A stretch of DNA of 64,000 nt. It comes from Nitrososphaeria archaeon (lineage in GTDB: Archaea; Thermoproteota; Nitrososphaeria; Nitrososphaerales; JAAOZN01). The notes beneath the pieces are model-generated. The model saw only the letters and a list, made by a program, of their open reading frames with translations, made no database searches and was not told the DNA's origin. Every line of letters begins with the position of its first letter. Position 1 is the stretch's first letter. The stretch is from the NCBI GenBank assembly GCA_029775855.1, contig JARVJZ010000004.1:32001-96000 (forward strand), given 5' to 3'. The position numbers were made by a program, and so were the translations under genes. Shown here piece by piece: positions 40,803-53,846 of this stretch.

Positions 40803-41210
40803 TTAAGGCATTATCTGCTTCAGCTTAGCCTCTATTATCTGACGGGGAACAGCACCTATCAACCTATCCACAACTTCACCATTACGCGCAAAGAGTAGAG
40901 TAGGTATGCTCATAATTCCATATTGTGAAGCTACGGTCGGATTCTCATCTACATTAAGCTTCCCAAATACTACTCTACCAGCGTAATCTGAAGCTAGCGC
41001 ATCAATTACGGGTGAGAGTATTCTGCAAGGTCCACACCAAGGCGCCCAACAATCTATAACAACTACTGGATACTGTGTGATGAAGTTGTCGAAGGTCGCG
41101 TCTGAAACTTCTACTGGCCTGTTAGGGTAGTTCTTTTTAGCCTCTTGTTCCGCTGCTTTTCTCATAAGTTCAAACATCTTTCTTCTTTTTAGATCTTCTA
41201 AGTCGCTCAA
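40803..41210 (-). CDS. trxA: Thioredoxin
   Basis: WAPWCGPC, SIPTL. Confidence 0.95.
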   Translation of the reverse strand: MSDLEDLKRRKMFELMRKAAEQEAKKNYPNRPVEVSDATFDNFITQYPVVVIDCWAPWCGPCRILSPVIDALASDYAGRVVFGKLNVDENPTVASQYGIMSIPTLLFARNGEVVDRLIGAVPRQIIEAKLKQIMP

Positions 41211-41224
41211 GGCTCTTCTCCTAA

Positions 41225-41692
41225 CTAGCCCTCTGTGTCTGCTATTAAAGAGTTACTTAGTTTAAATGCAAGCATCTCTTCATGTTTGAGGCGCTCTTTC
41301 ATCATACATCTATCCATGATTACTATAAGACCGGCATTCGATGCGGCTTCAGCGGCTTCTTTGTTTACGATACCCTCCTGCATCCAGACCGCTTTAAGTC
41401 GGCCATATTTCCTCCGAATTTCTAAAGCTTCTTTAACGACAGAGGGTACATCTTCCGCTCTTCTAAATATGTCCACAACCTCTATGCTAGCTTTAAGATT
41501 CTCCGGCAGAGCTGATAGTGATGGATAGGCTTTCTCGCCAAGAACTTCTTCTGCAAAGGGATTTATGGGTATTATCTTGTATCCCTTTGACTTTAGAAAC
41601 TCTGCCACCTTGTAGCTTTCTTTGTTAGGATCTCTTGATAAACCAACTACCGCTACTATACGACACTTTAGAACCTCTTCAACCTCATCCAA
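41225..41692 (-). CDS. CoA-binding protein (YccU-like)
   Basis: AVVGLS, VDIFR, WMQEG, DRC. Confidence 0.9.
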   Translation of the reverse strand: MDEVEEVLKCRIVAVVGLSRDPNKESYKVAEFLKSKGYKIIPINPFAEEVLGEKAYPSLSALPENLKASIEVVDIFRRAEDVPSVVKEALEIRRKYGRLKAVWMQEGIVNKEAAEAASNAGLIVIMDRCMMKERLKHEEMLAFKLSNSLIADTEG

Positions 41693-41713
41693 ATCTTTCT
41701 ACACACCATAAGA

Positions 41714-42355
41714 CTAAGCTCTGACAACAAAATCAATGAACTGCTCTTCCGGCAGCGCGCCAACGAACTCGAGCTTATCGTTAATTACTGTCTTAGGCAC
41801 AGCCATGACTGAGTAGCGGTTCGCGAGATGTGGAAACTCAACCGACTCAACCATATCAGCCACTATGTTAAGGTTTTCGATAGCGAGCTGATGTGCTGTG
41901 CGCACCGCTTTAGGGCAGTAAGGGCAAGTCGGTGTAACAAAGACTTGTATGTGGACCGGCTTACTTATGCTCTTCACTTTACTTACAAGCTCTGGTGGAA
42001 GTCTTGATCTACCTCTAGACACATCAACTATATCTTCAATTAATGAAGTGAATTCATAGCCTGAAGGTATACCGAAGTATCTGACCTTATATTCGTCTTT
42101 ACCAGTTATTATTGTGGCTGGTATCTTATCTACACCCAACGCCTTAGCAGTATTAGCTTCTGAGACAAAGTCGTAAACTTCTAGGTTAATCTTGTTCGAT
42201 AACGCAGCCAACTCCTCCAATAACATTCGAGTCTCCTTACAGAATTCGCATTCAAAGTCTTGTGTAAAGTAGCGTATCCTCACTTCTCCTTCGAGGTTTT
42301 GACTGAAGATTCTAGAGACCTTTCCTTTAATATCGTCCTTTAAGATAGCCATCAT
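41714..42355 (-). CDS. Protein disulfide oxidoreductase (PDO, two thioredoxin folds)
   Basis: CEFC and CPYC; GIPSGYEF; SVMAVPK. Confidence 0.93.
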   Translation of the reverse strand: MMAILKDDIKGKVSRIFSQNLEGEVRIRYFTQDFECEFCKETRMLLEELAALSNKINLEVYDFVSEANTAKALGVDKIPATIITGKDEYKVRYFGIPSGYEFTSLIEDIVDVSRGRSRLPPELVSKVKSISKPVHIQVFVTPTCPYCPKAVRTAHQLAIENLNIVADMVESVEFPHLANRYSVMAVPKTVINDKLEFVGALPEEQFIDFVVRA

Positions 42356-43894: not shown

Positions 43895-44099
43895 GCTCTA
43901 TGACGCTTCCTCTTGACTATATTTAAAATCTTACCATCAACATTCGCATCTTTGTTAACTTAGATGTGAACAATAGATTCAACATATACTCTGCTATTTG
44001 GTTGGAGGTGCGTGTCAACAAAGTCAAGATATGAGACAGTTGATTCTTATGTTTTTGCTAAAAACGATATATATCTTTACAACTTTTCAGCTATATTAG

Positions 44100-44119
44100 T
44101 ATGGTATATACATACCATA
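44100..44119. promoter_or_regulatory. Palindromic operator ahead of the ArsR-cdh operon
   Basis: TATGGTAT-ATAC-ATACCATA, about 25 bp downstream of AAAACGATATATAT (BRE/TATA-like). Confidence 0.65.
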
Positions 44120-44153: not shown

Positions 44154-44489
44154 ATGAGCGCTGCAGAGGTCTTAGCCGAAATGCCTGAGAGTTTTATACC
44201 CAAGGTCTGTAGAGTCTTTAGCAATCCAACTCGATACAAAATACTTTTGCTACTAGACAAAGAGCCTAGAACATTCACAGCCCTAATGAAGATGCTTACA
44301 GTCAACCCTAAGGTCTTAAATGACCACCTTAACACGCTAATAGCAAACAAGCTTGCAGCCAAATCCTATGCATATAATGTATATACATTAACTCCGCTAG
44401 GTCGTTTGGTAAAGGAAGCGCTAGCTGAGATGAACAACAAATTAAAAGAACCTTTAAAAACCTTGGCTCAGTGGGAGGGATTAGGATGA
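44154..44489 (+). CDS. ArsR-family HTH regulator
   Basis: FSNPTRYKILLLL, LNDHLNTL, YTLTPLG. Confidence 0.88.
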   Translation: MSAAEVLAEMPESFIPKVCRVFSNPTRYKILLLLDKEPRTFTALMKMLTVNPKVLNDHLNTLIANKLAAKSYAYNVYTLTPLGRLVKEALAEMNNKLKEPLKTLAQWEGLG

Positions 44490-44533
44490 GGAAGCTAGAC
44501 CAAAGCAGCCTCACGATAAGGAGGGATTAGAAT

Positions 44534-45994
44534 ATGCTTCTTGAATGTGACCCAAGTAAACTTAGAATAGAAACAATAGGTGTTGAGAAGCCCAACTTCC
44601 CGATGGACATAGGCGAGATGTATGAAGGCGAACGCATACGCCGCCCAGATATGCAGGTGGAGTTTGGAGGCGTTGATGTACCAAAAAAGTGGGAAATCGT
44701 CCTCACAAGAAAACCAGAAGAAATAGAAGATGGCAGAGTGATACTAATCGGACCAGACCTAAATGAACTAAAGCAAGGCGGCACCTACCCGCTAGGAATC
44801 TTAGTAGAGGTTGCTGGTGAGAAGGTTGAAAAAGACTTAGAGGGTGTGCTGGAGAGAAGAATACACTACTTCCTTAACTACATAGAAGGCGTTATGCACC
44901 TAAATCAAAGATACGATATATGGATTAGAATAGGGAAGAAAGTCTATCAAAAAGGACTGAACTCGCTAGCTTGGCTAGGTAAAGCGCTGATATGGCTCTA
45001 TAAACAGAGCTTTCCAGTAATAGAAAAGATACAAGTGAGCCTAACAACCGACCAACAAACGATAGAAAAGTTCTACCCATATGCGCTAGAAGTGTGGGCT
45101 GCAAGGGACAAACGCGCCAGAGAACTAAAAGACGAAGATGTAGAAGAATTCTACGGCTGTGTTATGTGCCAATCATTTGCACCCACACACATGTGTGTGA
45201 TAACACCTAACCGCATAGCGTCTTGCGGCTCAATAAGCTGGTTCGATGCAAGGGCAGCGTCAAAAGTAGATCCGAAAGGACCCAACTTCCCCATTCCTAA
45301 AGGGGAGTGCATCGACCCTATCAAGGGCATCTACACAGGTGTAAACGAGATTATATCTAAAAAGTCCCTCGGAAGCATAAAGCAAGTCGCGCTTTACACA
45401 TCTTTTGAAACACCACACACATCCTGCGGCTGCTTTGAGGGTATAGCCTTCTACATACCTGAAGTAGATGGTATAGCGATAGTTCACAGAGACTTTAAAG
45501 GACCTACCGTAAACGGGCTGACTTTCTCGAATATGGCTGAGCATACTAGCGGCGGCACGCAAAACCCAGGCTTCAACGGAATAGCGATAGAGTACCTTAG
45601 GTCACCTAAGTTCCTACAAGCAGATGGGGGCTGGGAGAGAATAGTGTGGATACCTAAGGCGATAAAAGATAGAGTTGGAGACAGCATACCTCAACATATG
45701 AAAGATCTAATACCAACTGAGCAAGAAGTCAAAAATATAGAGGAGTTGAAGTCTTGGCTAAAGAGTAAGAATCATCCAGTCGTTAAACGCTGGAAGCAGG
45801 TTGCTGAAGAAAAGGCGCCTGAGGTGAGAAAGGAGGCATTTGTGGAAGCCGCACCTGCTGAACTTGTGCCAGCAACAGTAGTGCCTGAAGGCTTATCCGT
45901 CCCGATAGGCGGAGGCTTCATCATCATCTTCAAGAACGCTAAGATCGTGGCTGAAAAGGTCATAATAAAGCGTGCGGAGAAGGTAGGGAAATAG
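44534..45994 (+). CDS. cdhC: Acetyl-CoA synthase (ACDS beta subunit)
   Basis: YEGERIR, HLNQR, FYGCVMCQSFAPTH.C...CG, HTSCGCFE; A-cluster Cys ligands intact. Confidence 0.97.
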   Translation: MLLECDPSKLRIETIGVEKPNFPMDIGEMYEGERIRRPDMQVEFGGVDVPKKWEIVLTRKPEEIEDGRVILIGPDLNELKQGGTYPLGILVEVAGEKVEKDLEGVLERRIHYFLNYIEGVMHLNQRYDIWIRIGKKVYQKGLNSLAWLGKALIWLYKQSFPVIEKIQVSLTTDQQTIEKFYPYALEVWAARDKRARELKDEDVEEFYGCVMCQSFAPTHMCVITPNRIASCGSISWFDARAASKVDPKGPNFPIPKGECIDPIKGIYTGVNEIISKKSLGSIKQVALYTSFETPHTSCGCFEGIAFYIPEVDGIAIVHRDFKGPTVNGLTFSNMAEHTSGGTQNPGFNGIAIEYLRSPKFLQADGGWERIVWIPKAIKDRVGDSIPQHMKDLIPTEQEVKNIEELKSWLKSKNHPVVKRWKQVAEEKAPEVRKEAFVEAAPAELVPATVVPEGLSVPIGGGFIIIFKNAKIVAEKVIIKRAEKVGK

Positions 45995-45995
45995 G

Positions 45996-47195
45996 ATGGC
46001 TGGCGGGAATGATGATATTAATGAGCTAGTCAAGAAGGTAGCTGACCTCGTGCAAAAATTTGAAGAAATCGAAATAGAAAATGTGGAGCTGTCAACAGAA
46101 GAGCTACGCATTATAATCCAACCTCTTGTCCAAACCGCAATTAAACGCGCTGAAGCAGCATTAAAGGTTGAAGAAAAACCCCCTGAACTTATTAAAGCAA
46201 CATTTACACCCTACCTAGAAAAGTTCCACGGACAGATCGCTGAAGTTCAACTTGGTGCTACAAAATCTGAAGGCGGGACAAGAGGGAAGACGCTGAAAAT
46301 CGGTGGAGAGAAGACGATGCCCTTCTACAGCTTTGAAGCATCTAATCCGAATAAACCCGTCTTCGCTATGGATGTGTTCGATATGCCCATTACTTTAACC
46401 AAACCTGTTAAGCAGATGGTAGAGGATGTTATGCACGACCCTGCTGAGTGGGCTAAGAAGTGTGTAAATAAGTATGGTGCGCAAGTTGTTTCACTTAATT
46501 TGGTGAGCACAGATCCGCTCCTTGAGGACAGACCTATTCAGCAAGCTATGAAGAGCGTTGAAAATGTCCTTCAAGCGGTGGATGTGCCTATAATCATTGG
46601 AGGCTCAGGTAATCCTCAGAAGGATCCATTAGTGCTTTCTGCTGCTGCGGAAGTAGCACATGGAGAAAAGGTGGTGCTGAACTCAGTTACTATTGAGATG
46701 GATTATAAGAGGGTTGTGAAGGCTTGTAAGGAGCACGGTCATGCACTAGTTTCTTTTACACCAATGGATGTGAATAATCAGAAGCGGCTTAATCGCTTAC
46801 TGTTAGATGAGGGGCTACCGAAGAATCAGATAGTCCAAGATCCAACTACAGCTGCATTAGGGTATGGTTTAGAATACGCCTTCAGCTTAGAGGAGCGAAT
46901 AAAGCTCGCTGGGCTGATGGGTGATGAGGATCTGCAGATGCCGATTTTAGCTGCTGCAAGCAACGCATGGGGTGCTCGTGAATCATGGATGAAGGTTGAG
47001 GAGTGGGGGCCTCGTGAGATAAGAGGGCCGCTTTGGGAGACTGTAACTTGTGTAGCGCTTATGATGGCTGGTGCAGACTTATTTATGATAAGTCATCCTG
47101 CTACGATTAGGGTTGCTAAGAAGCTTGCGGACAGCCTCTTTGGCGAAGGTGTCTGTGAGCAGAAGATAGAAAATTGGATCACGAGCCTAAAGTAG
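45996..47195 (+). CDS. cdhD: Corrinoid Fe-S protein small subunit (ACDS delta)
   Basis: GGSGNP.KD, DPTTAALGYGLEY, NAWGARE, RGPLWE. Confidence 0.96.
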   Translation: MAGGNDDINELVKKVADLVQKFEEIEIENVELSTEELRIIIQPLVQTAIKRAEAALKVEEKPPELIKATFTPYLEKFHGQIAEVQLGATKSEGGTRGKTLKIGGEKTMPFYSFEASNPNKPVFAMDVFDMPITLTKPVKQMVEDVMHDPAEWAKKCVNKYGAQVVSLNLVSTDPLLEDRPIQQAMKSVENVLQAVDVPIIIGGSGNPQKDPLVLSAAAEVAHGEKVVLNSVTIEMDYKRVVKACKEHGHALVSFTPMDVNNQKRLNRLLLDEGLPKNQIVQDPTTAALGYGLEYAFSLEERIKLAGLMGDEDLQMPILAAASNAWGARESWMKVEEWGPREIRGPLWETVTCVALMMAGADLFMISHPATIRVAKKLADSLFGEGVCEQKIENWITSLK

Positions 47196-47207
47196 GAGGG
47201 TAAGGGC

Positions 47208-48623
47208 TTGGCTAAGCCAACACTCCTAGATGTCTATAAGTATCTACCTCAAACAAACTGTGGTGAATGCGGAGAAGTAAACTGCATGTCGTTTGCGTCT
47301 AAGCTTCTCGAGAGGCGTTATAAGCCTTCAGACTGCCCACCACTGGTAAAAGAGTCAAAATACAAGGATAAGATGGCAGCGCTAACGAAGCTTGTCGCGC
47401 CACCAGTTAGGGCTGTGGTGATAGGTAAAGGCAAAAATGCTGTAACCATAGGTGGAAAGGAGGTTATGTATCGCCACGAACTAACACTACATAACCCCAC
47501 AGCTATAGCAGTAGATGTCTCAGATTTAGACCCACCAGAACTCATTGAAGAAAGGTGCAAGAAGATCGAAGGTTTCAAGGTTATAAGAATAGGAGATGAA
47601 CTTAAACTTAACCTAGTAGCTGTTAGAGCAGCTTCTGCGGATCCTAGCCGTTTTGAGAAAGCAGTCGAGATCGCCGCAAAGAGCTGCAGCTACCCCATGG
47701 TGTTGTGCTCTTTTGACCCCACGATTTTAGCAGCTGCATTGCGGAAGCCTGAGGTTGCTGACTCAAGACCTTTACTTTATGCAGCTACGAAGGATAATTG
47801 GAGGGAGATGGTTGTTCTAGCAAGGAAATATAACTGCCCTATTGTAGCGTTTGAACCTGGCGGATTGGATGAGTTAAAGTCTCTAGCCTTAACAATAAAG
47901 GCTAATGGTGTTGAAGATATTGTGCTAGACCCAGGAACTTATACTGACGGTGCTGGTTTAAGGGACACCCTTAACAAATTTGTTATGATTAGGCGCGCTG
48001 CCATAAAAGCGGGGGATGAAGGGTTAGGTTACCCTATCTTAGGCGTACCCGCTATCACATGGCTTGATGGAGGTGAAGACCCCGTTAAATCTTACGAGGA
48101 AGCCTATCTTGCTGCGGTTATGATGGCACGCTCAGCAGACATACTGATACTTCATACATTACAACCCTATGCTCTGCTAGCCTTAACAACACTTAGGCAG
48201 AACCTCTACTCAGACCCTAGAAAACCAGTTGCGGTCGAGCCGGGTTTAAGAACATTCGGTAGACCTAGCGAAGATTCTCCTGTACTTGTGACGACTAACT
48301 TTGCCCTAACATACTACACTGTGGCAAACGATATAGAGTCACAAGGGAACAACTGCTACTTGCTAGTTGCTAACACAGGCGGCTTGGCTGTAGAATGTAG
48401 TGTAGCTGGAGGTCAGTTCAACGCATCCGTTGTGAAAAATCTTATTGATGAGACTAAGATAGAGACTAAAGTTAAGCACCGCATTCTAATCATACCTCAG
48501 CTCGCCGCAAGGCTAAAGGGTGATATTGAAGATACTACCCAGTGGGAGGTAATTGTAGGCCCGAGAGACTCCTCACAGATAAGGGACTTCCTTAATAAGA
48601 ACTGGCCGCCACAAAAGAATTAG
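47208..48623 (+). CDS. cdhE: Corrinoid Fe-S protein large subunit (ACDS gamma)
   Basis: LPQTNCGECG..NCMSFA...CP, YRHEL, YSDPRKP, TTNFALTY, VGPRDSS. Confidence 0.97.
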   Translation: MAKPTLLDVYKYLPQTNCGECGEVNCMSFASKLLERRYKPSDCPPLVKESKYKDKMAALTKLVAPPVRAVVIGKGKNAVTIGGKEVMYRHELTLHNPTAIAVDVSDLDPPELIEERCKKIEGFKVIRIGDELKLNLVAVRAASADPSRFEKAVEIAAKSCSYPMVLCSFDPTILAAALRKPEVADSRPLLYAATKDNWREMVVLARKYNCPIVAFEPGGLDELKSLALTIKANGVEDIVLDPGTYTDGAGLRDTLNKFVMIRRAAIKAGDEGLGYPILGVPAITWLDGGEDPVKSYEEAYLAAVMMARSADILILHTLQPYALLALTTLRQNLYSDPRKPVAVEPGLRTFGRPSEDSPVLVTTNFALTYYTVANDIESQGNNCYLLVANTGGLAVECSVAGGQFNASVVKNLIDETKIETKVKHRILIIPQLAARLKGDIEDTTQWEVIVGPRDSSQIRDFLNKNWPPQKN

Positions 48624-48652
48624 GTGACACATTTACGAGCTTCCGGTATAGG

Positions 48653-49060
48653 GTGGAGATCAGAAACCCAGCGAGATGCATAGGATGCTACAGCTGTGTG
48701 TTCGCCTGCTCAAGACACCTATTTAATGTAGTAGACCCCACGCGCACAGCTGTCTTTGTGGAGCTGGATCGCAAAGGTGGAAGAGCTCCTAAGGTAAGTA
48801 TGTGTAGGTTCTGTAAGGAGCCTGAGTGTGCCTACGCTTGCCCTCACGGTGCTCTGCAACCCCTTCCAGAGGGGGGTATCACACTTACGCCTTCTAAATG
48901 TGCCCCTTGCACAACTTACGATTGTGTAGAAGCGTGTCAGTATAAGGTTCTTGTGCTCGATAGGGAGAAGAAGATACCTATACTGTGTGATAGATGTGGT
49001 GATTGCGCAAAGTATTGTCCTCACAATGTTTTTTGGTATACGGAGGCTCCTGGAATATGA
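48653..49060 (+). CDS. Four-cluster [4Fe-4S] electron-transfer protein (CooF/HydN/AOR small-subunit type)
   Basis: 16 Cys in four groups: CIGCYSCVFAC, CRFCKEPECAYAC, CAPCTTYDCVEAC, CDRCGDCAKYC. Confidence 0.9.
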   Translation: MEIRNPARCIGCYSCVFACSRHLFNVVDPTRTAVFVELDRKGGRAPKVSMCRFCKEPECAYACPHGALQPLPEGGITLTPSKCAPCTTYDCVEACQYKVLVLDREKKIPILCDRCGDCAKYCPHNVFWYTEAPGI

Positions 49061-50874
49061 ATAGTAGAGTTCTTTATGTTGATCTATCTGAATGCAAGAG
49101 TCGAGTTGAAGATAGGCGGGATCTATTCGAGAGTATGTTAGGTGGTGTAGGTGTTGCTTCACAAATACTTCTAGAAGAGAGCAAGCCACGCATAGACCCC
49201 TTCTCACCAGAAGCCCCAATAATATTTGCAACAGGACCTTTAACAGGCATATATCCGTGCATGGCTAAAGCGGTCGCGCTTTTTAAGTCTCCTCTTACTG
49301 GGAATTTGGGTGAAACGCATGCTGGTGGACACTTCGCAACCGCTTTAGCTACAGCAGGATACGGTGCACTTGTAATAAAAGGAAGCGCTCTACACCCTCA
49401 GGTACTTAAGATACGTGATGACAGGGTTGAGTTGAAGACAGCCTCCTCTCTTTGGGGGCTTGGGACAAGGGCGGTTGATGAAGCATTAGCTGAGCCGATT
49501 AAAACTGGTTTACAGAGCATAGCGGCCATAGGTCCGGCTGGCGAGCATATGGTACTCTATTCAAATGTTATAGTAGACCTTCACCACCATTTTGGAAGGT
49601 TAGGTTTAGGTGCGGTTTTAGGAGCTAAGAAGATTAAGGCTATTTCAATCATCGGCACCAAGAGCATTACACTAGAAAAACCTAACGCTGTAAAGGCGTT
49701 TTACGAGAAGATTGAGCACGAAGTTGTCGCTACAGATAAGATGTTGAAGTATCACAATTTAGGCACACCTAGTAACGTGCTTGAATTAAATGCGTTAGGC
49801 GCTTTACCTACTCGAAACTTTCGGGAAAGGAGATTTGAAGGCGCTGAAGAGATGTCTGGAGAAAGATTCGCTGAGACTGTGTTTAGGAGGAAGGTTACTT
49901 GCACTAACTGCCCAGTAGCATGCATACATCTAGGCGCATTTACAAAGAGTTTCGCACCGGAGCACGAGCGTGGTAGAAGTGAGATTATTAAGGAGGAGTT
50001 GGTTGTTGCATATAACTATGAACCTATGTTCGCACTAGGTTCAAACCTTGGAATAAGCGAACCAAGCCGTATACTTGAACTCATTGAGTTATGCGAAGAT
50101 CTGGGCTTAGACGCTATGATGACAGGCTCTGTTTTAGCGTGGGTGACTGAAGCTTGTGAGAGAGGGGTGTTAGACGAAAAAATTCTTGGAATTAAGCCAA
50201 AATGGGGTGATCCTGATAATATTTACCCGCAGATGATTAGAAGGATAGCCGAATCTAAAGACCCCTTCTATGCAAAGCTTGCCCAAGGTCTAGTCAAAGC
50301 TTCAGAGAGATATGGAGGTAATGAGTTTGCAGCCTCTCTAGGTGGGAACAGCCCAGCAGGCTACGCCACAGGCTATGGGCACATAGTGGGAACCCTTGTG
50401 GGAGCAAGGCATTCCCATCTCAGCAACTCAGGCTACTCCATAGATCAGCAGATAATATCAGGAAAAGCTAAGGTTGACGATATAGCAGAGTTTCTGGTGA
50501 GGCAAGAGAATTGGCTCTATGTGCTTTATTCTCTAGTAGCATGCTACTTTTCAAGGAGTGTGTATACTCCTGAGTATGTGGTAGAGGCTTTAACTACTGT
50601 AGGTATAAACACAACCAAGGAGGAGTTGGAGAAGCTGGGAATGAAGGTCTTTCATAATCTCTACAAGTTTAAGATGCAAGAAGGCTTCGACTTAGAGAAG
50701 CAGTATATACCTAAGCTTCTTAAAGAGCTCGATACACCAATCGGAAGATTAGAGCCACAAACGTTAAACAAGATAGTTAAGAGGTATATAGCTCTAAGGG
50801 AGAGAGAAGGGTTAAAAATAAGTAGAGAGGAGAAAACATTAGCAGACCTACTTCTCCCTTCAGATAAAGATTAG
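49057..50874 (+). CDS. Tungsten aldehyde:ferredoxin oxidoreductase-family enzyme (start re-assigned to ATG 49057)
   Basis: KSPLTG..GETHAGG, IGPAGE, GRLGLGAVLGAKKIKAI, LPTRNF, CTNCPVAC, DLGLD, VAC; ATGA overlap with the ferredoxin gene. Confidence 0.93.
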   Translation: MNSRVLYVDLSECKSRVEDRRDLFESMLGGVGVASQILLEESKPRIDPFSPEAPIIFATGPLTGIYPCMAKAVALFKSPLTGNLGETHAGGHFATALATAGYGALVIKGSALHPQVLKIRDDRVELKTASSLWGLGTRAVDEALAEPIKTGLQSIAAIGPAGEHMVLYSNVIVDLHHHFGRLGLGAVLGAKKIKAISIIGTKSITLEKPNAVKAFYEKIEHEVVATDKMLKYHNLGTPSNVLELNALGALPTRNFRERRFEGAEEMSGERFAETVFRRKVTCTNCPVACIHLGAFTKSFAPEHERGRSEIIKEELVVAYNYEPMFALGSNLGISEPSRILELIELCEDLGLDAMMTGSVLAWVTEACERGVLDEKILGIKPKWGDPDNIYPQMIRRIAESKDPFYAKLAQGLVKASERYGGNEFAASLGGNSPAGYATGYGHIVGTLVGARHSHLSNSGYSIDQQIISGKAKVDDIAEFLVRQENWLYVLYSLVACYFSRSVYTPEYVVEALTTVGINTTKEELEKLGMKVFHNLYKFKMQEGFDLEKQYIPKLLKELDTPIGRLEPQTLNKIVKRYIALREREGLKISREEKTLADLLLPSDKD

Positions 50875-50882
50875 AGGAGGAG

Positions 50883-51239
50883 GTGAAAAGAAACTTGTGT
50901 GAACTTAAGGTGTCTTTAAAGGAGGACGGCAAGTCGGTAGAGGTTGCGCAAGATGTGATCTACGTTAAGCTATCTGAGCAAAATCTCATATTGAGAGATG
51001 TTTTAGGCAGCTCTAAGATCGTTGAAGGCGCGTTAGTTGAGGAGCTCGATATATCTAAAGAGAGCCTAATCCTCCTTAAATCGCCTCTGCTCACCAAGGT
51101 GGCAAGATTCCTTAGTATACTTAACGCATCTATTTCCACCAGAAGATATGACCAAAGCATCGAAGCAGCTTGGGAGGATGTTAAGGCTGAAGGCGATAGA
51201 TGCATCAGAGAAGCGTGGAAGATGGGTAGGAAAGGTTGA
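50883..51239 (+). CDS. cooT: CooT-family nickel-binding protein with a C-terminal helical extension
   Basis: CELKV..., AQDV, LRDVLG..K.V.G.L.E.D pattern; next to the cooC genes. Confidence 0.72.
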   Translation: MKRNLCELKVSLKEDGKSVEVAQDVIYVKLSEQNLILRDVLGSSKIVEGALVEELDISKESLILLKSPLLTKVARFLSILNASISTRRYDQSIEAAWEDVKAEGDRCIREAWKMGRKG

Positions 51240-52027
51240 CTATTTCAATAGCAGTTACTGGGAAAGGTGGAGTGGGTAAGACTACCATAGCAGCCCTACT
51301 AGTCAAAACTATCCACGATAAAACTGGTGAAATAGTGTTAGCAGTCGACGCAGACCCAAACTCAAACCTACATGAGGCTCTAGGTGTAAAGGCGGGTAAG
51401 AGCATAGGGGATATACGCGAAGAACTGCTAAAACTAGGAGAACAAATACCCCCGGAGCAGGGAAAGGCAGATTATCTCGAAGGATTGATAGAAGGCGCTA
51501 CTGTAGAAGGCGAAGGTTTCGACTTAATCAGCATGGGTAGGCCAGAAGGACCAGGCTGCTACTGCTACGTTAACCATCTGCTTAGAAAGGTGCTTGATAA
51601 AGTTAGTGAAAGATATAAGTTTGTGGTTATAGATGCTGAGGCTGGATTAGAGCACTTCAGCAGACGCACTACTAGAGATGTTGATATTCTTATTGTGGTC
51701 TCAGACCCTACTGCACGTGGATTTATGACGGCTAAGAGGGTTAAGGAACTTGTGTCTGAGCTTAACACAAAGTTTGGAAAGATGTATATGGTGGTCAACC
51801 GAGTGCCTCAGAGCTTCGCTGACAAGGTTGCCGAAGAGGCTGCTAAAGTAGGAATAGAATGCATAGCACTTATACCTGAAGATGAATTAGTAGCGGAGTT
51901 CGACTTAGCGGGCAAACCTCTGACATCACTACCACCAGACTCTAAAGCATACCAAGCAATTCAAAAGATTGTCGAGAAGCTACCGCTTAAAGAAGCGGAG
52001 CAGACGCTCTGGTGGCAGAAGATTTGA
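51236..52027 (+). CDS. cooC: CooC/AcsF nickel-insertion ATPase
   Basis: GKGGVGKTT, DADP, GPGCYC, DAEAGLEHFSR. Confidence 0.93.
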   Translation: MTISIAVTGKGGVGKTTIAALLVKTIHDKTGEIVLAVDADPNSNLHEALGVKAGKSIGDIREELLKLGEQIPPEQGKADYLEGLIEGATVEGEGFDLISMGRPEGPGCYCYVNHLLRKVLDKVSERYKFVVIDAEAGLEHFSRRTTRDVDILIVVSDPTARGFMTAKRVKELVSELNTKFGKMYMVVNRVPQSFADKVAEEAAKVGIECIALIPEDELVAEFDLAGKPLTSLPPDSKAYQAIQKIVEKLPLKEAEQTLWWQKI

Positions 52028-52818
52028 AGATAGCAGTAGCGGGTAAAGGTGGTGTAGGCAAGACCACAGTGAGCGGCGTATTAGCGAGGGCGATGGCACG
52101 CCGTGGGTATAAGGTTCTTGCAATAGATGCTGACCCCGCGATGAACCTATGGCTATCTTTAGGTGTGCCAAAGTCAGCCTTGACCAACATTACACCCTTA
52201 TCTGAAAATGATAACCTAATAGAAGAACGCACTGGTGCAAGACCCGGATCCATAGGTGGAGTCTTCAGCTTAACACCTAAAGTTAGTGACCTCACTGACA
52301 AATATGGTATCACGGGTCCTGATGGTGTTACCCTTCTGGTATTAGGTACGGTTAAGTCTGCTGGTGGAGGATGTATGTGCCCAGCTAACGCTCTTCTTAA
52401 AGCGCTTCTACGCCACCTTCTATTAGATAGAGAAGATGTTGTTGTGTTAGATATGGAGGCTGGGTTAGAGCATCTAGGTAGGGGTGTTGTAAAGGGTGTT
52501 GATGTACTTCTGGCTGTGGTTGAGCCTAGCTATAGATCTATTGAGACAGCCTTCAGAGTGAAGAAGTTGGCGCAAGACCTTGGTGTTAAGCGCGTTTATG
52601 TGATTGGTAATAAGATTAGTCGGGATGAAGAAGCCTTTTTTGTTAAGAGTGAGACAGAGAAGCTAGGGATGAATCTTTTAGCCAATATCCCCTTAGACCA
52701 AGCTATACCTGCTGCTGAAATGGCTGCGCTGTCACCCATAGACTACGCCCCAGCCTCACCGGCGGTAAAAGCGATTGAAGGTCTAACTCACCGTCTTAAG
52801 GAGATAATAGCTAGCTGA
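52012..52818 (+). CDS. cooC: Second CooC-family nickel-insertion ATPase
   Basis: GKGGVGKTT, GGGCMCP, DMEAGLEHLGRG. Confidence 0.93.
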   Translation: MAEDLKIAVAGKGGVGKTTVSGVLARAMARRGYKVLAIDADPAMNLWLSLGVPKSALTNITPLSENDNLIEERTGARPGSIGGVFSLTPKVSDLTDKYGITGPDGVTLLVLGTVKSAGGGCMCPANALLKALLRHLLLDREDVVVLDMEAGLEHLGRGVVKGVDVLLAVVEPSYRSIETAFRVKKLAQDLGVKRVYVIGNKISRDEEAFFVKSETEKLGMNLLANIPLDQAIPAAEMAALSPIDYAPASPAVKAIEGLTHRLKEIIAS

Positions 52819-52820
52819 AC

Positions 52821-53846
52821 ATGCCTATGCAGCAAGCTAGGGAAGGAGACTTCATAGAACTCGACGAATACTCTATCTTCGAAGTAAAGGGTCTAAGCCA
52901 CCCATCTTATGGAGTGATAGCGTATCCACGCTACCTACCTAGCGAGAGAGGGGTGAGGATAAGATGTGGCAGAAGGTATCTGAGGCTTTACACCTTTGAA
53001 GAGAGGGAGAAGGTGCTTAAAGGGAGGTTCGCGCAATACTACACCTTTAACCCCTACTACAATAGACTGCTGCCTATAATACCTTGGGGCAGAGTTCAAA
53101 GACACTTCAAACCACAAGATATGGTTAGAGTGTTAAGAGCATCACACAATCTTGCTGGTTTAAGACTAAAGGTGCTGGAGTTCATCGAATATATCTCCAG
53201 AGAAGCGGATGTGCCAACAGATAACCTTGGTATATCAGGCTCCATTTTGCTTGGGTTAGAAGAAGAGAACTCTGACATAGACTTAATCGTGTACGGTCTG
53301 AAAGAATCAGCAAAGGTTAGGGAAGCAATCTTAAACGCTATGGCTGAAGGAAGCGTTTTACGGACTCTCACAGAAGAGAGGCTAAAAGAGCTCTATCTAT
53401 TCAGATCAAGGGATACGGCTATGCGCTATGAAGATTTTAAAAGGGTTGAGCAGAGGAAGAGCAACCAAGGTCTCTTTAAAGATACACTCTTCTTCGTCAG
53501 ATATCTTAGAGAGTGGAGCGAGGTAGAGGAGCGGTATGGTGAATATTCGATTCGAAGATTAGGATACGGTAAGATATATGCTAAAGTTGCTGACGCAAAT
53601 GAAGCACATATGTGCCCCGCAATCTACATCCTAAAAGATGTTACCTTGCTCTCAGGTCCGAGCTGGACAACTATAGATAGGCTAATTACGTGGCGAGGTA
53701 GGTTTGCTGAACAAGCATCTGAAGGCGAAGCTATCGTTGCGCAAGGATTTATGGAGGAAGTATTATTTAGAGATAGAGTGGTTAAGCAGATGGTGGTAGG
53801 TGAAGAGCGCTATGACACCATCCTACCAAAGTGGCGAGAATTATAA
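52821..53846 (+). CDS. Predicted archaeal nucleotidyltransferase (COG1665-like)
   Basis: EGDF, VKG..HP, GISGSIL.G....SDIDLIVYG, RGRFAEQA..GE. Confidence 0.82.
   Translation: MPMQQAREGDFIELDEYSIFEVKGLSHPSYGVIAYPRYLPSERGVRIRCGRRYLRLYTFEEREKVLKGRFAQYYTFNPYYNRLLPIIPWGRVQRHFKPQDMVRVLRASHNLAGLRLKVLEFIEYISREADVPTDNLGISGSILLGLEEENSDIDLIVYGLKESAKVREAILNAMAEGSVLRTLTEERLKELYLFRSRDTAMRYEDFKRVEQRKSNQGLFKDTLFFVRYLREWSEVEERYGEYSIRRLGYGKIYAKVADANEAHMCPAIYILKDVTLLSGPSWTTIDRLITWRGRFAEQASEGEAIVAQGFMEEVLFRDRVVKQMVVGEERYDTILPKWREL

Follow-up and report, generated by a model that had tools for sequence, protein, structure and literature searches.

What is a gene for an aldehyde ferredoxin oxidoreductase (AOR) doing among the genes for acetyl-CoA synthesis in an archaeon, and does its product stand in for carbon monoxide dehydrogenase (CODH)? 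The question is raised by an operon at 44154-53846 of a 64,000-nucleotide (nt) stretch of DNA, called here the window, from the genome of a Nitrososphaeria archaeon (GenBank assembly GCA_029775855.1, contig JARVJZ010000004.1). In this operon the genes for the beta subunit of acetyl-CoA synthase (ACS) and for the corrinoid iron-sulfur protein are followed by genes for a polyferredoxin, an AOR and nickel maturation. A preliminary description of the window took it for a CODH-independent ACS module with a tungsten AOR in the CODH slot. The whole genome and its relatives give another answer. The operon is the ACS/corrinoid half of a split acetyl-CoA decarbonylase/synthase (ACDS), the nickel-maturation genes sit with this half, and CODH is encoded on other contigs.

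The two halves of the ACDS

The window corresponds to C4:32001-96000 of the genome (designated G000), which comprises 1.51 Mb in 6 contigs (C1-C6) and is 98.4% complete. The operon has the order arsR-cdhC-cdhD-cdhE-polyferredoxin-AOR-cooT-cooC-cooC, followed by a tenth open reading frame (ORF), all on the + strand. The first nine genes were identified from Pfam and NCBIfam profile scores of the translated ORFs. The leading gene, arsR (44154-44489), encodes an ArsR/SmtB-type winged-helix regulator (PF01022, 30.1 bits). It is followed by cdhC (44534-45994), encoding the A-cluster-bearing ACS beta subunit (TIGR00316, 624 bits, cut-off 356; NF003379, 680 bits), and by the genes for the delta and gamma subunits of the corrinoid iron-sulfur protein, cdhD (45996-47195; TIGR00381, 476 bits, cut-off 253) and cdhE (47208-48623; NF003195, 581 bits, cut-off 306; PF04060). 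All three products exceed the curated equivalog cut-offs and thus belong to the archaeal ACDS. By eye, the CGC motif of ACS and an upstream cysteine cluster are seen in CdhC, and four cysteines in the N-terminal [4Fe-4S] motif of CdhE. Next come the polyferredoxin gene (fd, 48653-49060), encoding a small AOR subunit of 135 residues, and the gene for the AOR-family tungsto/molybdopterin oxidoreductase itself (49057-50874), which most likely begins at the ATG at 49057 rather than at the start of the long ORF at 49003. A cooT-like gene (50895-51239, within a long ORF from 50883), cooC1 (51236-52027) and cooC2 (52012-52818) complete the series. The junctions have gaps of 44, 1, 12, 29, 8 and 2 nt, with an ATGA overlap between fd and AOR, a TTGA overlap between cooT and cooC1, and a 16-nt overlap between the two cooC genes. 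Profile identities and junction lengths confirm the gene order and tight packing first described.

Searches of G000 with the Prismane/CODH and CdhB families revealed two loci, one on C6 and the other on C1. Contig C4 gave no match to CdhA or CdhB, and the earlier observation that the window lacks cdhA and cdhB was borne out. CdhA is full-length at both loci (TIGR00314, 1182 bits on C6 and 1075 bits on C1), and each copy is directly followed by CdhB (TIGR00315, 119.5 bits on C6 and 122.4 bits on C1). The two CdhA proteins are 53% identical to one another. No cooC or cooT was found near either cdhAB locus. When the window's proteins were compared with the whole genome by tblastn, a single cdhC, cdhD, cdhE and cooT were found, and the only cooC genes were the two of the operon. 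Since two cdhAB pairs lie elsewhere and these nickel-maturation genes are the only ones in the genome, they must serve the remote CODHs. This supports a caveat in the preliminary description, that the target of CooT and a second CooC may be a CODH encoded in another part of the genome.

The nickel-maturation proteins appear to be divided between the two halves. CooC1 and CooC2 are CbiA/MinD-type P-loop proteins with a GKGGVGKT sequence and a CxC motif (CYC and CMC, respectively), which we take to be the deviant Walker A motif and the metal motif of CooC/AcsF ATPases. Neither was scored by a dedicated NCBIfam or Pfam CooC model. The best PDB match of both is the CooC structure 3kje, presumably a CODH-maturation protein, to which CooC2 is much closer (157 bits, versus 83 bits for CooC1). 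AcsF is the corresponding nickel insertase of ACS. The group designated f6 has a split ACDS too. There a gene of the CooC1 type (41% identity to CooC1) comes after cdhC-D-E, and one of the CooC2 type (58% to CooC2) after cdhA-B. From these neighbourhoods and the 3kje scores, CooC1 is probably an AcsF-like insertase for ACS, and CooC2 is probably the insertase for CODH. CooT scores above the PF10133 cut-off (38.5 bits, cut-off 27), had no meaningful match in the PDB and is extended by about 50 residues at its C terminus. Its most likely start is the TTG at 50895, 8 nt after a GGAGGAGGTGA ribosome-binding site. There TTG-TGT encodes Met-Cys, and only this start yields the cysteine at position 2 that is presumably a nickel ligand.

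An inverted-repeat element at 44099-44119 (no strand assigned), about 43 nt upstream of arsR, is a candidate operator or promoter. A 13-mer within it occurs exactly twice in the 1.5 Mb of G000, the second copy being at C6:87244-87256, 48 nt upstream of the C6 cdhA. Genomes of the same genus retain the half-site at both positions, before arsR and before the C6-type cdhA. Co-regulation of the split halves through this candidate operator is suggested. With up to two mismatches, the 13-mer had no match in the f12, f19, Bathyarchaeia, f5 or f6 loci. A third near-match in G000, at C2:9398, lies inside a coding frame and was dismissed as chance. Divergent to the C6 cdhA is a gene for the large subunit of a molybdenum hydroxylase (locus L007, 4772-7162, - strand), similar to glyceraldehyde dehydrogenase alpha and aerobic CoxL (673 bits); it adjoins a homologue of LarA-like nickel-pincer racemases (L007, 3377-4693, - strand).

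Conservation of the ferredoxin-AOR pair

Loci with related AORs were collected from relatives of the same order, from named genomes by a pattern scan derived from the AOR alignment, from a 401-genome sample of the phylum and from a 201-genome sample of the class of Candidatus (Ca.) Hecatella. They were scored with the window's own proteins after removal of same-contig duplicates. The counted set consisted of 17 genomes with AORs of 52-85% identity and enough upstream sequence; loci L059 and L061, which begin inside AOR, were left out of the upstream count. In all 17, cdhC-cdhD-cdhE-fd lies directly upstream of AOR. The set bears the labels Nitrososphaerales, Nitrososphaeria or Thaumarchaeota, Candidatus Bathyarchaeia, Ca. 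Hecatella orcuttiae and Ca. Methylarchaceae. In 11 of these genomes cdhC is immediately preceded by a co-directional cdhA-cdhB, usually with arsR ahead of the pair, and a twelfth genome (G033) has cdhA-B-C-D-E-fd and then the contig end. Six genomes have cdhAB away from the operon: the window's, G002, G003, Ca. Hecatella (L053), Ca. Methylarchaceae HK01M (L054) and archaeon isolate H03B2 (L056). Where cdhAB have left, fd-AOR remains with cdhCDE. In 13 of the 17 the cdh genes have an arsR homologue upstream, and cooT-cooC lie downstream of AOR in most, the exceptions being f19, L063 and L064.

The AOR therefore does not occupy a CODH slot, as had been proposed, for it still follows cdhE in the 11 genomes in which cdhA-cdhB precede cdhC in the same operon. 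The preliminary description had also allowed for a split ACDS locus with a passenger AOR, to be recognized by a co-regulated cdhAB elsewhere in the genome and by the lack of conserved cdhCDE-AOR linkage in relatives. Two cdhAB pairs do lie elsewhere. But the synteny survey that it proposed found the linkage kept in 17 of 17 genomes, and because of this conservation the AOR is not a passenger.

A quick IQ-TREE tree, with SH-aLRT supports from the quick method, was built from 43 AOR-family sequences taken from G000 and the collected loci. A branch with 99% support separates the 17 linked AORs from the rest, in groups that were defined by linkage, the feature afterwards counted. Their sister group is made up of 12 AORs with a ferredoxin partner only (98%), and the two clades are set apart from 14 other paralogues (100%). 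Six genomes, the window's included, have one member of each clade; the duplication therefore predates these lineages. In a FastTree tree of CdhE, the f5 and f6 proteins, from loci without AOR, lie apart from all CdhE of linked operons, and the same subgroups are recovered, which fits inheritance of the block as a unit. As a separate observation, in G468 (L094, contig C29) a sister-clade fd-AOR pair with 48% identity is convergent to a cdhE gene, and the CdhC match of this genome lies inside a 728-residue open frame.

Six AOR-family paralogues were found in G000, plus a seventh, partial tblastn match at C2:250369. The ferredoxin-partnered sister-clade member is at C2:78877-81017 (43% identity). 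Other matches are at C1:154189, C2:209928, C4:98819 and C6:136680, and those at C4:98819 and C2:250369 adjoin weaker ferredoxin matches. An apparent link of the paralogous fd-AOR pair on C2 to ftr was rejected as coincidence, as unrelated opposite-strand genes lie between them.

The distribution of the pair is restricted. In the order sample, CdhC is present in 13 of 41 genomes. Seven of these have a linked AOR, one probably does (G033) and three do not (G007, G008, G024); G001 and G010 were not scorable, as the contig ends in cdhC. In the Bathyarchaeia-class sample 140 of 201 genomes have CdhC, and the linked AOR was found in 5 of the 140. The phylum sample of 401 genomes added only three, all with a sister-clade AOR and fd alone. 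The fd-AOR module is accessory to ACDS. Several genomes of the class sample also have a second CdhC match, which covers only model positions ~5-400 in open frames of 640-736 residues (e.g., G447:C9:14303-15505 and G471:C5:35527-36723). These may be fused or bacterial-type forms of ACS.

The AOR is a member of its family by both Pfam domains, which exceed the gathering scores (AFOR_N, 223.5 bits; AFOR_C, 209.8 bits). Among solved structures it is closest to 9mqx (236 bits) and Pyrococcus furiosus AOR, 1aor (232 bits); the scores for WOR5 and BamB are 142 and 104 bits. Residues C282, C285, C289 and C496 align with C288, C291, C295 and C494 of 1aor, Y321-E322 with Y312-E313, and H454 with H448. 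We take these to be the cluster ligands and the catalytic Glu and His of the P. furiosus enzyme. All are invariant among 6 orthologues, and the enzyme looks active. Its scores are below the equivalog cut-offs for the YdhV type (NF007354, 171 bits, cut-off 868) and GAPOR (NF040818, 32 bits, cut-off 1300). The label "tungsten" in the preliminary description is an assumption, as the choice between tungsten and molybdenum is undecided by sequence. An extended GARHSHL...GYS motif is common to both ferredoxin-partnered clades. Peculiar to the linked clade is a conserved insertion, F-[AS]-P-x-H-E-x-G, which immediately precedes the Tyr-Glu pair and makes this segment 6-7 residues longer than it is in the sister clade. 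In the polyferredoxin, all 16 cysteines of the four [4Fe-4S] motifs are invariant across 15 orthologues.

Possible functions of the pair

Family searches of G000 bear on the metabolic setting. Mch, Ftr and FwdC are present, and there was no match for the alpha subunit of methyl-coenzyme M reductase (MCR) or for formate-tetrahydrofolate ligase. From this combination the organism looks like a non-methanogenic archaeon with a Wood-Ljungdahl pathway of the tetrahydromethanopterin (H4MPT) type. Weak matches were obtained for the beta domain of ADP-forming acetyl-CoA synthetase (56 bits) and for a gene of the iron alcohol dehydrogenase (Fe-ADH) family (65 bits), possibly a glycerol-1-phosphate dehydrogenase.

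Signs of expression come from two metatranscriptome runs of one study (X1 and X2), which contained 30% and 18% of the sampled words. Assembled contigs of these RNA libraries cover parts of arsR, cdhC, cdhD, cdhE, AOR, cooT and both cooC genes. Among the contigs listed, most pieces differ from the window at fewer than 2 letters per 100, and there are contigs that bridge cdhC/cdhD and cdhD/cdhE. Stretches not covered in these runs are uninformative, and two further runs, X3 (probably DNA) and X4, added nothing.

The explanation we favor, and consider reasonably probable, is that of a split ACDS operon in which the fd-AOR pair is a redox module, expressed together with ACDS and working at the low potential of an aldehyde/acid couple, and for which CODH is provided in trans. 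The genes present, the location of the CODH genes on other contigs and the conservation of the linkage are established by the data. The ACS/corrinoid half is encoded with the only nickel-maturation genes of the genome, CooC1 probably serving ACS, and CooC2 and CooT serving CODH. The CODH half is supplied in trans from the two cdhA-cdhB pairs on other contigs. The AOR and the four-cluster ferredoxin, encoded between cdhE and cooT, form a conserved two-subunit enzyme of a dedicated clade, which arose by duplication of a free-standing fd-AOR pair and has been attached to cdhCDE ever since. Co-expressed with ACDS, this enzyme would exchange very low-potential electrons of an aldehyde/acid couple, through the polyferredoxin, with the ferredoxin-dependent ACDS reaction. 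In one direction, aldehyde oxidation would feed CO2 reduction and enzyme activation; in the other, acid reduction would drain surplus reduced ferredoxin. We infer this role from the position and conservation of the pair and from the known chemistry of the AOR family.

Several points weigh against this explanation. Electron exchange, its direction, the substrate and physical contact are all matters of inference. ACDS can do without the module, which is absent in f5 and f6 and from all but 5 of the 140 CdhC genomes of the class sample. One genome, G436, has in addition to a linked copy a second AOR with 53% identity to the window's (L118, G436:C5:63242-64984; absent from the AOR tree) that has no fd or cdhE within 1.5 kb. 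The acetate/ethanol branch of G000 is weakly supported by the 56- and 65-bit matches. The 13-mer of the candidate operator coincides in part with a TATA-like sequence, and the upstream region of the C1 cdhA has no copy of it. None of the RNA contigs listed bridges cdhE-fd-AOR-cooT, and these data are assembled contigs from a single study, with possible carry-over of DNA, which cannot prove a transcript.

How closely, then, is the AOR tied to ACDS? The tie may lie only at the level of products. The AOR could interconvert acetate and acetaldehyde, or other acids and aldehydes, by way of the general ferredoxin pool, and be co-regulated with ACDS at the acetyl-CoA/acetate node without dedicated wiring. 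In acetogenic bacteria grown on CO, AOR couples CODH-reduced ferredoxin to acid reduction, an established route. The catalytic residues found here are those of ordinary aldehyde-oxidizing AORs, and with five other AOR paralogues in G000 aldehyde chemistry is prominent. An enzyme drawing on a general pool needs no fixed place, yet the order cdhE-fd-AOR is kept in all 17 genomes. The insertion near the active site is peculiar to the linked clade, and the weakness of the acetyl-CoA synthetase and Fe-ADH matches also speaks against such a route, which we regard as possible but not the likelier solution. At the other extreme, the AOR and four-cluster ferredoxin could be a physically integrated part of ACDS, wiring aldehyde oxidation to the reduction of CO2, the A-cluster or the corrinoid. 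This appears rather doubtful. A complex prediction for CdhE and the polyferredoxin, made with 15-row alignments, had a score of 0.00, which is evidence neither way. If true, such a module would permit an aldehyde-driven, ATP-independent start or running of acetyl-CoA synthesis without a soluble ferredoxin.

An intermediate role, raised in the preliminary description, is that of an ATP-independent reductive activator, in which fd-AOR, drawing on the strongly negative aldehyde/acid couple, would take the place of RACo and return the inactive Co(II) corrinoid of CdhDE, or the A-cluster of ACS, to the reduced state. In the ACDS loci of f5 (L070) and f6 (L069), which lack fd-AOR, a RACo gene with Fer2, RACo_middle and RACo_C_ter domains lies between the cdh and cooC genes. 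The f5 interval between cdhE and cooC (L070, 4497-8462) encodes a DUF166 protein, a B12-binding protein, a second DUF166 protein and RACo, and is a different accessory set at the position held here by fd-AOR. RACo_C_ter (PF14574) was searched for in the 41 genomes of the order sample. Copies are present in f5 and f6, and there was no match in the four genomes of the window's genus, G000 included, three of which are 98-99% complete. Moreover, fd-AOR stays with the corrinoid and ACS genes where cdhAB move away. A clean replacement of RACo by fd-AOR thus holds when the genus is compared with f5 and f6. It fails elsewhere, as fd-AOR and a RACo-family match occur together in f12 (3 of 3 genomes), f19 (2 of 2) and two of three further fd-AOR genomes (Hecatella and HK01M). 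The f12 and f19 copies are not linked to cdh. The one in G021 (f19, L079), the only one to receive a full domain scan, has the complete RACo domain set and is beside an aminotransferase gene; those in G014 and G038 (f12) adjoin a thiamine-synthesis gene (ThiD/ThiN), and a further copy in G014, which is RamA-like, has a URO-D-type methyltransferase gene as its neighbor. Methanocaldococcus jannaschii, used as a control, has ACDS without RACo, so that absence of RACo is not unusual. The outcome is mixed, and we consider the activator role unlikely.

Two explanations deny any functional tie of the AOR to a complete ACDS. In one, fd-AOR was inserted once into an ancestral cdh operon and simply persisted there. 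In its favor, the module is absent from most of the sampled genomes with ACDS, and its sister clade works unlinked. However, the adjacency is kept down to 52% AOR identity and in genomes labelled as Nitrososphaerales as well as Bathyarchaeia, although cdhAB and cooT/cooC have been rearranged around it, and the linked clade has conserved sequence features of its own. Neutral persistence is therefore quite improbable. The CODH-independent ACS with AOR replacing CODH, the main conclusion of the preliminary description, agrees with the lack of a CODH gene in the window and on contig C4. It is refuted at the level of the genome. The whole-genome search proposed in that description gave two full cdhA-cdhB pairs in a genome that is 98.4% complete, and with two full-length CdhA proteins G000 is not comparable to Dehalococcoides, in which the catalytic subunit of nickel-CODH is lacking. 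A CODH-type CooC and CooT are kept in the operon, and 11 of the 17 genomes have cdhAB and fd-AOR together in a single operon. We give this explanation almost no weight.

Flanking genes, known systems and significance

The tenth and last co-directional gene (52821-53846, + strand) starts 2 nt past cooC2 and encodes a protein of 341 residues with no family match in Pfam, NCBIfam or the PDB. Its nearest atlas clusters have NTP_transf_2 (PF01909) in 22-49% of members, a GS...DxD motif is seen by eye, and a nucleotidyltransferase fold is likely. Homologues adjoin cooC2 in L059 and L064 and lie upstream of arsR in L063; a paralogue with 31% identity is at G000:C2:16422-17375. The operon is flanked by unrelated genes on the opposite strand, for inositol-1-phosphate synthase and a GT4 glycosyltransferase. 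About 2.5 kb upstream, a gene for a small CoA_binding_2 protein (41225-41692, - strand) lies between two thioredoxin-fold genes (40803-42355, - strand).

Split ACDS loci with duplicated cdhAB are found in Archaeoglobus fulgidus. As in that type of archaeal ACDS, the CdhC, CdhD and CdhE equivalogs are encoded here in one operon, two CdhA-CdhB pairs are encoded elsewhere, and the methyl branch appears to be of the H4MPT type. The difference is the AOR and four-cluster ferredoxin between cdhE and the nickel-maturation genes. In the CODH operon of Rhodospirillum, cooFSCTJ, a ferredoxin-like gene and a redox enzyme are likewise followed by cooT and cooC in one direction. In the relatives of the window's archaeon, however, AOR accompanies CODH and does not take its place, and the resemblance arises because nickel-maturation genes trail a cdh operon. 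For WOR5 of P. furiosus (6x6u) and the Aromatoleum AOR (8c0z), too, the gene for the AFOR_N and AFOR_C subunit immediately follows that for a small protein with four [4Fe-4S] motifs. Compared with these polyferredoxin-partnered enzymes, the present AOR has low similarity (WOR5, 142 bits), forms a separate clade with its own insertion before Tyr-Glu, and lies inside a cdh operon.

In the accessible text of a preprint on the genomic context of CODH genes, A. fulgidus has two clade A CODH genes, and the neighbors of clade A include genes of the C1 pool, CooC and FeS proteins (10.1101/2025.09.14.676152). Aldehyde, AOR and tungsten do not occur in that text. The ethane oxidizers Ca. Ethanoperedens and Ca. 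Argoarchaeum have highly expressed aor genes near or in operons with methanogenesis and Wood-Ljungdahl genes, with a role that was left open (PMC7175092). These are alike in the closeness of AOR genes to genes of the C1 pathway. They differ in having alkyl-coenzyme M reductases, whereas no MCR alpha subunit was matched in G000. The likeness is one of gene context, AOR sequences not having been compared, and the accessible part of that paper does not describe the order cdhE-fd-AOR-cooT. Neither AOR nor aldehyde occurs in the accessible text of the Methylarchaeales paper (PMC9478090), and that of the Wolframiiraptor paper (PMC9246946) has no description of the cdhE-fd-AOR arrangement. A full-text literature search found no description of an AOR inside a cdh operon in the text accessible to it; supplementary tables, which were outside the search, may list such genes. 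The conserved variant of the ACDS operon with a dedicated AOR-polyferredoxin module is apparently undescribed.

The operon is thus no evidence for a CODH-free ACS, and the earlier interpretation should be corrected. For practical use, the signature sequence of the linked clade, the neighborhood rule for ACS-type and CODH-type CooC, and the candidate operator common to the split halves may serve as markers. At the center of the archaeal Wood-Ljungdahl pathway stands ACDS, an enzyme whose supply of electrons at about -500 mV and whose reactivation are poorly understood outside the methanogens. A dedicated clade of AOR kept in the cdh operon points to a specific link between the aldehyde/acid couple and the synthesis or cleavage of acetyl-CoA in uncultured archaea that are important to carbon turnover in sediments and hot springs.

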